In this document: one piece after another, positions 7,129 to 41,950 of the stretch
How positions within the stretch are numbered: the first letter of the stretch is position 1
How the letters are laid out: the number at the start of each line of letters is the position of its first letter
Source of the DNA: a phage
Assembly: GCA_020857175.1 (NCBI GenBank)
Contig: GCA_020857175.1_3048.1
Length of the DNA stretch: 64,000 bases
Reading direction: 5' to 3' (one strand)
Notes under the pieces: generated by a model
Seen by the model: only the letters and a program-made list of their open reading frames with translations
Databases searched by the model: none
Told to the model about the DNA's origin: nothing
Made by a program: the position numbers and the translations under genes

Positions 7129-8141
7129 TATGTTCAGATAAGGTCGTTAATCTTACCCCGGAATTATATCCAGCTGCATGTCACCATGCAGATCAGACTA
7201 TATCTCCAACTTGTTAAAGCAAGTTGTCTATCGTTTCGAGTCACTTGACCCTACTCCCCAAAGGGATAGTCGTTAGGCATTTATGTAGAACCAATTCCAT
7301 TTATCAGATTTTACACGATAAGTAACTAATCCAGACGAAATTTTAAAATGTCTAGCTGCATCTGCTGCACAATCAAAAATAACCCCATCACATGAAATCT
7401 TTTTAATATTACTAGGCTTTTTACCTTTCATCTTTTCTGATATTTTAGATTTAGTTATGTCTGAATGCTTATGATTAAAGAATGAATTATTTTCACCTGA
7501 ACGATTTCTGCATTTACTACAAGTATAAGCAGAAGTTTGTATGCGAACACCGCACTTACAAAACTTATGGGTTTCTGGATTCCAACGCCCGTTTTTACTT
7601 CCGGGTTTACTGTAAAGAGCTTTCCGACCATCAGGTCCAAGTTTAAGCATCTTAGCTTTAACAGTTTCAGAACGTTTCTTAATAATTTCTTCTTTTAATG
7701 GATGCGTAGAACATGTATCACCAAACGTTGCATCAGCAATATTGTATCCATTAATTTTAGAATTAAGCTCTTTAATCCAAAAATTTTCTCGTTCAATAAT
7801 CAAATCTTTCTCATATGGAATTTCTTCCAAAATAGAACATTCAAACACATTACCATGTTTGTTAAAAGACCTCTGAAGCTTTATAGAAGAATGGCATCCT
7901 TTTTCTAAATCTTTAAAATGCCTCTTCCATCTCTTTTCAAAATCTTTAGCACTTCCTACATATACTTTATTGTTTAAAGTATTTTTAATCTGATAAATTC
8001 CGCTTTTCATAAATACCTCTTTAAATATAGAAGTATTTATTAAAGGGCAGTCCTACAATTTAGCACGGGATTGTCTACTAGAGAGGTTCCCCGTTTAGAT
8101 AGATTACAAGTATAAGTCACCTTATACTCAGGCCTCAATTA
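7129..8141 (-). ncRNA. td group I self-splicing intron
   Basis: about 1 kb between td exons; in-frame stop immediately after exon 1; 5' and 3' intron segments match recalled T4 td intron sequence (UAAUUGAGGCCUGAGUAUAAGG...). Confidence 0.75.
7273..8010 (-). CDS. I-TevI: intron-encoded GIY-YIG homing endonuclease I-TevI
   Basis: 245 aa inside td intron; GIYQIKN...VYVGSA GIY-YIG motif; Zn-finger CKCGVRIQTSAYTCSKC linker. Confidence 0.85.
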   Translation of the reverse strand: MKSGIYQIKNTLNNKVYVGSAKDFEKRWKRHFKDLEKGCHSSIKLQRSFNKHGNVFECSILEEIPYEKDLIIERENFWIKELNSKINGYNIADATFGDTCSTHPLKEEIIKKRSETVKAKMLKLGPDGRKALYSKPGSKNGRWNPETHKFCKCGVRIQTSAYTCSKCRNRSGENNSFFNHKHSDITKSKISEKMKGKKPSNIKKISCDGVIFDCAADAARHFKISSGLVTYRVKSDKWNWFYINA

Positions 8142-38225: not shown

Positions 38226-38657
38226 TTATTCCTTAAAATGAGCTTTCAGCATCTGATACAAAGACCATGCTTGTTCATTATTTTCAATAGTAACTTTCAT
38301 GACTGGGAATTCTGTGAAATCTTCTATTTGTTCTTGCTCTTTCTCTTTCTCTTCCTGCTCTTGCTCTTCAGCTGCCTGATATGGATTTTCCACTTCATCA
38401 AAGAACACAGCTTCACTCGTTGAAAGCCAGATAAAATCTTCATCCAAAATATCTTTACCAGAAGATAACGCCAATTTTCCACTAGATGTCACAAGTTTAG
38501 TAGGACGACCAAGATAGTCAATATCTGTAACTCTAAAAGGTTCCATACCAAGACGTCGTGCATAAATTCCGTTTTCGGTATGGTCCTTGATAAAATCTTC
38601 TTGTGCTTGTTTATTTTTAAATTGATACCATTTATTAACTTCAAATTTAATAGCCAT
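38226..38657 (-). CDS. hypothetical acidic protein
   Basis: 143 aa with [13 protein letters not shown] low-complexity acidic tract. Confidence 0.4.
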
Positions 38658-38872
38658 TAATAAGTTTCCTTCCAGTAAGTTGTGCCATCTTCAGTAATTT
38701 CACGAAATACACCGTAAATTGGTTGTTTATCACCAACCTTTTCATACACATAAACCGAAGTCAAGTGAGTAAACTTAACGGTATGTTCTTTTTGAACTAC
38801 TACCAAATCTGGATCGAATAATACATCTTCAAATTCGTCATTAGTGCAATTCTGAACAATTTTACGTTTCAT
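38657..38872 (-). CDS. hypothetical protein
   Basis: 71-aa ORF. Confidence 0.4.
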
Positions 38873-38885
38873 TACAATTTCCTCA

Positions 38886-39167
38886 TTAATTGAACAGTGG
38901 AGCGATGCGTTTCAGAAGAGTAGCAGCACCTTTAGCGAATTTTACATCATGAAAAACAGTTTCTTCTTCCGTTACAACACGAGCTTTAATGTTTTCACAA
39001 TCCCAATTTTTGCGAACAATCTTCAAAAGCTGCAGTAAATCTTTACATTCAACAATATCGATAACACATCCACGAGAATCTTCCATTATCGCACGATAAC
39101 CGTAAGCCATACCATAATCGTTGAAAGATTGCTCGATGATAATTAAGTTTTCCATTTTATTCTCCAA
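38886..39167 (-). CDS. hypothetical protein
   Basis: 93-aa ORF. Confidence 0.4.
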   Translation of the reverse strand: MENKMENLIIIEQSFNDYGMAYGYRAIMEDSRGCVIDIVECKDLLQLLKIVRKNWDCENIKARVVTEEETVFHDVKFAKGAATLLKRIAPLFN

Positions 39168-39262
39168 GTTGTTTTCTGTATCAGTAGTTGATATTGATAT
39201 AGTACCATAATCAACTACTGATGTATATAGTTTTATGAAAAAATTTTAAACTTTATGCAAAT

Positions 39263-39682
39263 TTATGCTAAAGCTGCTTCGCACCATTTTTTAATTTGGA
39301 ATTCAGGAACGACCATGAACTGGCCTGCAAAAACAATATTGTAGAGCTTGACACCATCTTCTACCCAACGGTCCGAAATAAAACCAGCGACTTGATTCGT
39401 TGTCCATGGAGTTCCATCTGTTGCCGCCGCAATTGTGAATTTATGGTCTTTTACAACTAAAACTGAAGAACAAAGTTTCCATTTAAATGCGCTTTCTTCT
39501 GGCTCAATGAACTGACTTGAGACATAACCAATGTTACCATCAGCGTCACGAACTTTAACCTCGTTACGACCAAAAACTGGATCACTTACAGAAAGAACTT
39601 CAACCAGCTTTCCTGCAACTTTAGAACGAGAAGCAACGGATACATATACGTAATCACCAGTAGAGAGATTTACAATATTCAT
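39263..39682 (-). CDS. paralog A of two-domain family (motB-region)
   Basis: 139 aa; shares SxASRSKxAGxLVEV and DRWVEDGxxLYNIVFxGxFxVV motifs with next ORF. Confidence 0.5.
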   Translation of the reverse strand: MNIVNLSTGDYVYVSVASRSKVAGKLVEVLSVSDPVFGRNEVKVRDADGNIGYVSSQFIEPEESAFKWKLCSSVLVVKDHKFTIAAATDGTPWTTNQVAGFISDRWVEDGVKLYNIVFAGQFMVVPEFQIKKWCEAALA

Positions 39683-39691
39683 AATAATTCC

Positions 39692-40165
39692 TTAAGCTTT
39701 ACGAGGAGAAGCATAACGAGTGATTTCAGATTCTTCAACAACCCGGAAGTCACCTAAGAATACGATATTGTAGAGATTTTCACCATCTTCAACCCATCGG
39801 TCTGTGATGAAGCCGCACATCCTATCAGTTTTACTTGGACCAGCGAAATCATCAATATAATCGAATTCTTCATCAGTTACAAATTCAACGCCTTTACACA
39901 ACGCCCATTTAAATTGTGCATTAGACTCAGTGGATTCAACTTCTTCAACAGAAGCAAAATGAGAGCTAACACGAGTTTCCAGAAATTTAGGACTTACGTA
40001 AGCGTACTGAGTTTCAGTTTTTCCAGAACTAGGAATGATTCGAACTTTAACTTCTTTAACACGACCAGTACCATTAGTACGAAGTCCTACCACTTCAACT
40101 AGACGACCTGCAGCTTTAGAACGAGATGCAGACGATACACGCTTAATTTCACCGATAGTAATCAT
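39692..40165 (-). CDS. paralog B of two-domain family (possible MotB homolog)
   Basis: 157 aa; same motifs as paralog A. Confidence 0.5.
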   Translation of the reverse strand: MITIGEIKRVSSASRSKAAGRLVEVVGLRTNGTGRVKEVKVRIIPSSGKTETQYAYVSPKFLETRVSSHFASVEEVESTESNAQFKWALCKGVEFVTDEEFDYIDDFAGPSKTDRMCGFITDRWVEDGENLYNIVFLGDFRVVEESEITRYASPRKA

Positions 40166-40241
40166 AATTTTTCTCTCTTTGTTGTTAAGATTTATACTCC
40201 CTCCGCAGGACCATTATACTCTGGCCCCAAGAGTTTGTAAA

Positions 40242-40433
40242 CTAGCTTACACGAACATTAATCACTGCGCTGCGAGGAACTACAGAGTACTCTCCAGCAT
40301 GAACTACGTTCAGAAGTTCAACACCATCTTCAATCCACTGATCAGTCACCCATCCACCCACAGGATTCGCGAATGGACGATGAATATAAACTTGCCTTAC
40401 ACAGCAGATCAGTTGGATCTTCAGGTTTTTCAA
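40242..40433 (-). pseudogene. C-terminal remnant of third paralog copy
   Basis: encodes ...VTDQWIEDGVELLNVVHAGEYSVVP but has no ATG and upstream part is replaced by another ORF. Confidence 0.45.
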
Positions 40434-40680
40434 TTTCTGTCAATAGACTAAAATCTTTTTCATAAATAATAAGCGGTGATACCATTCCATAATAGTTTCT
40501 AATTTCAATATACATCATACCGATAAGAATTCCGCTATTAACACTAATAACAGTAAAAGGATATCCACCAGTTAAACCAAGAAGTTCACAAAACTTATTA
40601 TGAGCTATATTAGACAGTACCGAAAAATTCTTAATTTCATCAAATTTTTTCAATTGATAAACAGCATTATTTTTAATCAT
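40342..40680 (-). CDS. hypothetical protein
   Basis: 112-codon ORF whose 3' end overlaps the paralog remnant in another frame. Confidence 0.4.
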   Translation of the reverse strand: MIKNNAVYQLKKFDEIKNFSVLSNIAHNKFCELLGLTGGYPFTVISVNSGILIGMMYIEIRNYYGMVSPLIIYEKDFSLLTEIEKPEDPTDLLCKASLYSSSIRESCGWMGD

Positions 40681-40690
40681 AATTTTCTCT

Positions 40691-41203
40691 TTAATCTAAG
40701 GTAATAAAGCCTTTTAATTCGGCATGCGATTTGCGAAACATTACTTGATGCCCACCAATGATAACTTGATCATCTGGAACTTCATAAATCGCAATGTACA
40801 TTCCACGATCTTTTAAGTCTTCACGCTCTTCTCGGGTGAACCATCTCATCATATCATATTCACTAGCGAAAGCAAAATGATATAATGAAATAAGCCACAA
40901 TGGAATATAATTTTCAAATTGTGAATAATCTTTATTCCATTTAGTTTTAATAGTATCATTAGCATTTTCAACTAATAACTTATCATCGTGTGGAATAGGA
41001 ATACTTTCATGGCTTTCATAATTATCGCTATGATGATGAAATGACGATGAATTAATACCGCAAAATTTTAGCCAAGTTCGAGTTTTCATAGAATCAAACC
41101 CACGATAAGGAGTTGATTGAACGCATAACTCTTGCCTAATTTTCACTATACCACTATCATCATTTAATGCGCTAAACGATGATTCAACACGATAAATTTT
41201 CAT
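40691..41203 (-). CDS. hypothetical protein
   Basis: 170 aa from MKIYRVESSF with GAGGATAAT RBS. Confidence 0.45.
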   Translation of the reverse strand: MKIYRVESSFSALNDDSGIVKIRQELCVQSTPYRGFDSMKTRTWLKFCGINSSSFHHHSDNYESHESIPIPHDDKLLVENANDTIKTKWNKDYSQFENYIPLWLISLYHFAFASEYDMMRWFTREEREDLKDRGMYIAIYEVPDDQVIIGGHQVMFRKSHAELKGFITLD

Positions 41204-41227
41204 TTTATTATCCTCAGTAGCTATGGT

Positions 41228-41261
41228 GTTATAGTACCACAACTAACCGAGGAAGTAAACA
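41228..41261 (-). promoter_or_regulatory. early-type promoter
   Basis: minus-strand GTTTAC at 41255-41260 and GGTACTATAAC -10-like. Confidence 0.4.
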
Positions 41262-41266
41262 ACTTT

Positions 41267-41950
41267 TTATCGTTTTGTTGGAAGAGACAAAGGATCGCAC
41301 TCTTCCTCTGACGGAGCATCTTCAAGACCCATAGCATATCGCAAAGCATACTTCATCATCAGGATGTCTTTCGCACAGTCATGAATAGAATCATGCGCAA
41401 CGAATCCATCTAAAGTTCCTTTTGGAAGAGGACACGTGGTCATATCACGAACAAGGAGAAGTGCTTCAATTCTGGTACGAATATCACGCTGATTCCAAAA
41501 TTTACAAGGTTCTAACTTAAATGTATCAAGCTCATTCTCGGAAACGCCGTTAAGACGTTGAATATCGCGAATGAGATCGACTAAAATTGGAAAATCAAAC
41601 GACATTCCACGGCACCAGCCTTGAGATTTCCAAGGATCGATATTATGCGCATTGATGTAATCATTAAATTTTGCAATACCATCGATAGTGCTTACATCTT
41701 CATCTGATGGCGCAATATTTTTTCGAGCTTCAGGAGATTGATTCTTCCACCATTCGATAGTGCTTTTAGTAAAAAGACGATGTCCTTTTTGGCTTTTTAA
41801 ATCAAATTTGATTTTAATGCCACGTGAAACTAATTCATCAAATGTTTCAACGACTTCTGGATTAGGGTCAAAAGCAATTACAGCCAAATCAATAACAGCT
41901 GCTTTTTCACCGCTTCCCATTGTTTCAAAATCTATAATAAAATCAAACAT
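41267..41950 (-). CDS. dexA: exonuclease A
   Basis: 227 aa, DEDDh-like exonuclease, same length as T4 DexA. Confidence 0.85.
   Translation of the reverse strand: MFDFIIDFETMGSGEKAAVIDLAVIAFDPNPEVVETFDELVSRGIKIKFDLKSQKGHRLFTKSTIEWWKNQSPEARKNIAPSDEDVSTIDGIAKFNDYINAHNIDPWKSQGWCRGMSFDFPILVDLIRDIQRLNGVSENELDTFKLEPCKFWNQRDIRTRIEALLLVRDMTTCPLPKGTLDGFVAHDSIHDCAKDILMMKYALRYAMGLEDAPSEEECDPLSLPTKR

Follow-up and report, generated by a model that had tools for sequence, protein, structure and literature searches.

A one-base insertion divides motB.1 within the motB cluster of a T4-like phage contig

Organization of the motB cluster

The 64,000-nucleotide stretch of DNA considered here (hereafter, the window) is that of a T4-like phage (Tequatrovirus), with a 2.3-kb query around the locus of interest matching 679 phage records, of which ESh18 and JLBYU24 provided the best matches (98.3% identity). 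When the whole window was compared with ESh18 for indels, the two were found to be approximately 95% identical, with isolated indels being assignable to neither genome, the ESh18 record being labeled UNVERIFIED. Although the contig entered the database under the name Escherichia coli (NCBI third-party annotation, locus tags LOG80_...), its DNA is that of a T4-like phage, the phage having been co-sequenced with a bacterial isolate. Such co-sequencing of phage and bacterium has likewise been noted for other 'bacterial' MotB matches (PMC7827196).

Examination of the region revealed a series of genes on the minus strand in the order dexA (41267-41950), motB.2 (40691-41203), motB.1 (40242-40680), motB (39692-40165), a gene encoding a 139-aa MotB-like paralog of the RB3_010 type (39263-39682), an 89-aa ORF of the RB3_009 type (38886-39155; phrog_3720), cef (38657-38872) and goF (38226-38657). 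The four ORFs that the initial annotation had listed between positions 39263 and 40680, including one of 112 codons overlapping its neighbor, were all found on this strand as described. Comparison with T4, where the order is cef-motB-motB.1-motB.2-dexA, showed this to be the same cluster, the additional material in the window corresponding to the 89-aa ORF and the 139-aa paralog, both of which T4 lacks. The region is thus the early, dispensable motB cluster of Tequatrovirus, with motB.1 found at its usual position, downstream of dexA and between motB.2 and motB.

In the case of motB.2, the 183-aa ORF called mechanically (40691-41242, TTG start) has no entry in the protein database, while relatives and the source assembly call a protein of 170 aa beginning at the ATG at position 41203 (phrog_1106, PF26820). 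Several phage records name this protein a 'transcriptional regulator'; it shows no similarity to MotB. The possibility that MotB.2 is a fourth member of the MotB family was rejected, with hhalign assigning a probability of 0.2% to its match with the MotB profile. No intrinsic terminators were found between positions 38800 and 41400. The stretch separating the 139-aa paralog and the 89-aa ORF (39168-39262) contains an 11-bp inverted repeat (CAGTAGTTGAT...ATCAACTACTG), although this repeat includes no T-run and was not called as a terminator.

MotB and its shorter paralog

The 157-aa product of motB and the 139-aa paralog align across their whole length (BLASTP E 1e-29, 40% identity), and both are members of Pfam family PF17613, scoring 136.7 and 72.1 bits, respectively, against a gathering cut-off of 25 bits. 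The common N- and C-terminal motifs previously noted in these two ORFs hence reflect genuine homology. The 63-codon frame found upstream of motB (see below) also scored above this cut-off (34.8 bits). Two-domain architecture, as defined by a KOW-like N-terminal motif (SRSKAAGxLVEV...EVKVR) and a C-terminal core (GFITDxWVEDGxxLYNIVF), was seen in the 157-aa ORF, which matches positions 2-158 of the 162 in the PF17613 profile, and in the 139-aa ORF, which presents two Pfam-matched stretches and a full-length match to PHROG 1671 (E 1e-50). At motB.1, only the C-terminal core was found. The 139-aa paralog comprises the KOW-like motif SRSKVAGKLVEV and the C-terminal core GFISDRWVEDGVKLYNIVFAGQFMVV without a long linker, and its ATG lies 9 nt past the motB stop codon, with an AAGGA ribosome-binding sequence. 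The exact protein is encoded by 126 contigs and is named MotB-like in RB68/ST0.

At the DNA level, the two full copies share 71% identity across 92 nt, with exact identity common to all three copies being limited to about 10-14 nt (GAAGATGGTG). As judged from these alignments, the copies diverged long ago. Recent gene conversion between them was considered and rejected, since the exact DNA identity they share amounts to at most about 14 nt.

An AlphaFold2 model of the MotB protein encoded in the window, generated from a 24-sequence alignment (pLDDT 80.3), presents two small beta-barrel domains, with residues 65-81 forming a disordered linker between them. The modeled domains resemble small beta-barrels of the Tudor/KOW type and would be compatible with MotB-like DNA binding; a PDB sequence search with MotB returned no match at E <= 1. 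Published accounts of T4 MotB describe a protein whose DNA binding is tight and non-specific and that copurifies with H-NS/StpA, changes the footprint of H-NS and relieves the repression of host genes under H-NS control (PMC6070864; PMC7827196). By analogy, the paralogs encoded in the window may bind DNA as does T4 MotB. In the favored reading, the motB gene and the gene encoding the 139-aa paralog stem from an ancient tandem duplication, the duplicated protein comprising two domains, namely, a KOW/SH3-like N-terminal barrel and a second small beta-barrel.

MotB.1 and turnover in the family

The region upstream of motB was mechanically divided into two ORFs, namely, one of 63 codons with a TTG start and no ATG (40242-40433) and another of 112 aa in a different frame (40342-40680), with the two overlapping by 92 nt. 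Both are, however, covered by a single family, PHROG 2333 (210 positions), of which positions 43-179 match the 112-aa ORF (E 2e-30) and positions 160-210 match the 63-codon frame (E 5e-32). Judged by tblastn against phage records and by searches of the protein database, MotB.1 is encoded in one frame in every relative examined, with ESh18, RB3 and many others presenting an uninterrupted 438-nt ORF encoding 145 aa at this position and Manna encoding a 166-aa version that contains an in-frame insert; IMG/VR provided only 13 loci, a number too small for a survey of motB.1 intactness. Alignment revealed exactly one extra A on the gene strand, such that the gene spans 439 nt in the window, as compared to 438 nt in relatives. 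The insertion lies after codon 96, at positions 40392-40393 (TT on the plus strand, the gene being on the minus strand), where the window reads AA (GGCAAGTTT) and relatives contain one A (GGCAGTTT; GGC-AGTTT). In silico removal of the extra A restored a protein of 145 aa that agrees with RB3 MotB.1 in 142 of its 145 residues. The closest DNA relatives of this motB.1 are 99.2% identical, each comprising 470 nt over the stretch that counts 471 nt in the window.

Accounting for both frames, the product encoded at 40342-40680 comprises MotB.1 residues 1-96, corresponding to the N-terminal domain and linker, followed by 16 out-of-frame residues. The region encoding the C-terminal domain (40242-40391; native residues 97-145) is intact but out of frame, and it is this domain that carries the homology to MotB, as reflected in matches of the remnant to the 157-aa (E 8e-10) and 139-aa proteins (53% identity over 32 aa, E 1e-12). 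Together with the match between the two full copies, these values show that protein similarity among the three copies, for which pairwise alignment had been proposed, extends far beyond chance. Likewise, comparison of the MotB.1-family and MotB-family profiles yielded a match of 98.6% probability (E 1.2e-15) confined to the last 37 columns. The MotB.1-type N-terminal domain was thus identified in the 112-aa ORF, while an in-frame MotB-type C-terminal domain was obtained only upon deletion of one base. As read from the sequence, the locus is a disrupted allele of motB.1, with no separate gene being present. Very probably, therefore, this is the motB cluster, in which the 'overlapping ORF' and the 'remnant' of the initial annotation are two parts of motB.1 divided by a private, one-base frameshift.

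In the AlphaFold2 model of an intact MotB.1 protein 99% identical to the restored version (pLDDT 81.5), the N-terminal elements fall between residues 7 and 83 (pLDDT approximately 80) and C-terminal strands span residues 96-143. In terms of this model, the frameshift would remove the entire C-terminal domain yet spare the N-terminal domain because the shift, coming after residue 96, meets the domain boundary. MotB.1-type proteins correspond to Category 2 of Patterson-West et al. 2021 (PMC7827196). Their N-terminal domain is a module other than that found in MotB and has been published as being LSm-like (Kim et al. 2025, PMC12152347; PMC7827196). MotB.1 accordingly never had a MotB-type N-terminus, such that the absence of this motif at the third copy is the normal architecture of the protein and not erosion.

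Variation across the family was next considered. Among the 774 phage records having any MotB hit, 208 encode a true ortholog of the 139-aa protein, as defined by identity of 80% or more, and in none did the match to this protein fall between 60% and 80%. MotB.1 homologs fall into length classes of 143-145, 164-169, 177-183 and 244-252 aa, with N-terminal modules that are different or duplicated. Alignment of P0073, P0080, P0064, P0081, P0037 and P0053 showed such homologs to be modular, with some of approximately 250 aa containing the N-terminal module twice. A 21-aa insert (IDMDLVSMYVxPVEK) found in some MotB.1 homologs resembles the N-terminal motif of the 180-aa class. Chimeric genes were also detected, namely, those encoding P0247 (163 aa) and P0188 (173 aa), in which a MotB-type N-terminal half is joined to the C-terminal half of the 139-aa paralog. 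These chimeras sit alone at the place of the tandem pair, in metagenomic contigs from several samples (L022, 3001-3492; L023, 2199-2690; L024, 37-528; and L025, 1373-1894), which suggests that they arose by unequal recombination between paralogs. The proposal that the motB/cef region is a duplication hotspot undergoing birth and death is in part borne out, in that the region, the homology and the variation in copy number all stand; the decayed and overwritten copy invoked as a further sign of such turnover does not. The C-terminal domain shared by MotB and MotB.1 and the idea of duplication were, moreover, published in 2021 (Patterson-West et al., PMC7827196). As such, the cluster, the sharing of domains and the history of duplication are already known, and the present finding is an ordinary one.

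Origin and consequences of the frameshift

To what extent the extra A is confined to the window was addressed in several collections. A 40-nt probe spanning the insertion yielded zero matches in 50,697 phage records, and the exact pattern of the insertion allele was absent from IMG/VR, JGI metagenomes and GTDB genomes. As a control, the wild-type pattern was found in the same type of search. The exact 112-aa product was encountered only as HBK9475793.1, encoded by a 65,226-bp NCBI TPA contig labeled E. coli, and in a Logan contig of SRR5368307, the DNA of which is identical, insertion included. These are two assemblies of one sample. A second private change was detected 11 nt downstream of the insertion, namely, a G to A substitution on the gene strand (plus-strand position 40381) that would lead to R100H in the restored frame. 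The base at this position differs from that of the window in all 27 matching phage records, and R or K occupies the corresponding residue in 20 of 20 aligned family members. Four differences separate the window from its nearest relatives here, and the insertion and this substitution make up two of them. The pair could reflect a single, complex mutation or a consensus of poor local quality.

Signs of an old pseudogene were not seen. Only one indel was found, three amino acids differ from RB3 MotB.1 after correction and, since the DNA of motB.1 is 99.2% identical to that of intact orthologs, there is no indication of prolonged decay. The change is hence private, and either a recent frameshift or a read-level error, rather than the outcome of long-term decay.

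That the extra A arose from faulty sequencing or consensus calling, with the phage really containing an intact 145-aa motB.1, is possible and was given a minority, though by no means negligible, chance. The allele is a singleton across all collections searched and the second private change lies only 11 nt away, such that half of the four differences from relatives fall together. At the same time, two different assemblers generated the same sequence for the SRR5368307 sample, which argues against an assembly artefact, although it is compatible with an error at the level of the reads. Furthermore, the site, where A becomes AA, is no homopolymer run. Indel errors in Illumina data are rare at such non-homopolymer sites, and this also counts against error. 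Of the two explanations, a real and recent mutation was ranked above error, by a preference that is appreciable but not overwhelming. Most likely, then, the mutation is real and has cost the phage the function of a gene it can do without under laboratory conditions, with a read-level error being less likely.

Were the mutation real, it could have been selected. In this scenario, loss of the C-terminal domain would be advantageous in this host, for instance by letting the phage evade a defence system by which this domain is recognized, while the N-terminal domain would go on working as a protein in its own right. The position of the shift exactly at the domain boundary, sparing the whole N-terminal domain, and the sequencing of the phage along with an E. 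coli isolate are consistent with such adaptation. Still, the allele was encountered a single time, with no recurrence, and the sole other truncated allele, that of the T4 reference considered below, is absent from resequenced T4. Moreover, deletion of motB.1 from T4 was without phenotype in laboratory strains (PMC12152347), so that neutral loss fits equally well. An adaptive origin was accordingly considered very unlikely. The same low probability attaches to the broader notion that phages selectively shed the C-terminal domain in particular hosts, for instance where a defence recognizes it, in which case the private frameshift and the adjacent missense change would form an escape allele, captured while the phage grew on an E. 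coli isolate of clinical or environmental origin, and the LSm-like domain would be a functional stand-alone unit.

The initial annotation instead saw in this locus an old third MotB copy that had decayed N-terminally, surviving only as a C-terminal remnant, with an unrelated ORF newly arisen over it. Indeed, the C-terminal frame contains the MotB core, lacks an ATG and is overlapped by another ORF, and copy number in the family differs between phages. The supposedly new ORF, however, fits the N-terminal part of the same PHROG 2333 to which the remnant belongs, the two are conserved as a single ORF in relatives, and a single indel separates the window from intact genes 99.2% identical to it. 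Decay and overwriting, already highly improbable on these grounds, is refuted by the PHROG span, the alignment and the restored 145-aa frame; the remnant is real, yet it does not survive alone, with the 112-codon ORF being its N-terminal part in one gene interrupted by one inserted A. Finally, programmed +1 ribosomal frameshifting or transcriptional slippage yielding full-length MotB.1, with which the wholly intact downstream frame would agree, is scarcely credible given that the allele is private, that the shift is not conserved, with every relative examined having the protein in one frame, and that no slippery run exists at GGC-AAG-TTT (GGCAAGTTT).

Assuming a real frameshift in motB.1, its consequences would probably be limited. 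Intact MotB.1 comprises a different, LSm-like N-terminal module joined to the same C-terminal domain as found in MotB. The extra A after codon 96 would shift the frame, such that the N-terminal domain followed by 16 missense residues is produced and the MotB-type C-terminal domain is lost. The resulting truncated protein would presumably lack MotB.1 function. A strong promoter-like site (TTTACA-17-TATAAT; 11/12 matches) is found on the minus strand at 40213-40241, immediately upstream of motB and adjoining the motB.1 stop codon; the GiZh record annotates a host-promoter-like sequence within its own counterpart of the motB.1 region. Transcription of motB could thereby proceed from its own promoter-like site independently of the motB.1 defect, and no polar effect on motB would be expected because this site stands between the two genes. 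In T4, deletion of motB.1 leaves burst size and latent period normal (PMC12152347). What probably results is loss of the function of the MotB.1 C-terminal domain, at small cost in culture. With a known and dispensable early gene disrupted at one base, and this in one assembly, the allele is of small significance. Automated annotation presents a hypothetical protein of 112 aa here, leaving the C-terminal domain uncalled, and split calls of this sort are best taken to represent a frameshifted motB.1.

The T4 reference itself presents a comparable case. There, motB.1 (NP_049627; positions 7291-7650 of the NC_000866 record, corresponding to 2292-2651 of locus L004; compare L026, 706-1137, and L027, 301-732) encodes 119 aa (13.8 kDa) ending in DQWIGRWR*, and contains one G more than do RB3 and the window (ATTGGAAGATGG vs ATTGAAGATGG). 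This base follows codon 115, with the next 26 codons being recognizable out of frame. A 40-nt probe spanning the extra G matched only AF158101 and NC_000866, two copies of the reference record, while in the resequenced T4 genomes MT984581 and MZ375356 MotB.1 is annotated as 143 aa long, the gene differing from that of the reference by this G alone. Protein database entries assign the 143-aa form to 256 contigs, as compared to two for the 119-aa form, and all relatives encode a MotB.1 of 143-145 aa with a complete MotB-like C-terminal domain. T4 MotB.1 is thus probably 143 aa long, with such a domain. A 2025 study reported a 13.8-kDa MotB.1 and cloned a motB.1 amber-mutant fragment from the NC_000866.4 sequence (PMC12152347); work on the '13.8 kDa MotB.1' may, as such, have used a truncated protein. 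The extra G matters to any experiment in which motB.1 is synthesized from NC_000866.

Set against T4, the 157-aa ORF in the window is the ortholog of MotB (PF17613; PHROG 1671), being found at the same place between motB.1 and cef and containing the same KOW-like N-terminal motif and C-terminal core, although it is 157 aa long, as compared to 162 aa for T4 MotB. After motB, the window contains a second, diverged copy (139 aa, 40% identity) with a shorter N-terminal loop and no linker, which T4 lacks. The third gene agrees with MotB.1 (PHROG 2333) in its place, its N-terminal domain and its C-terminal domain, and the restored protein is approximately 81% identical to the intact T4-type form of 143 aa. 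By contrast with T4-type MotB.1, the two domains lie in different frames in the window, as the result of a private 1-nt insertion. The T4 reference motB.1 is likewise truncated in the C-terminal domain by a 1-nt insertion that leaves the downstream codons recognizable, yet at a different site and as an independent event.
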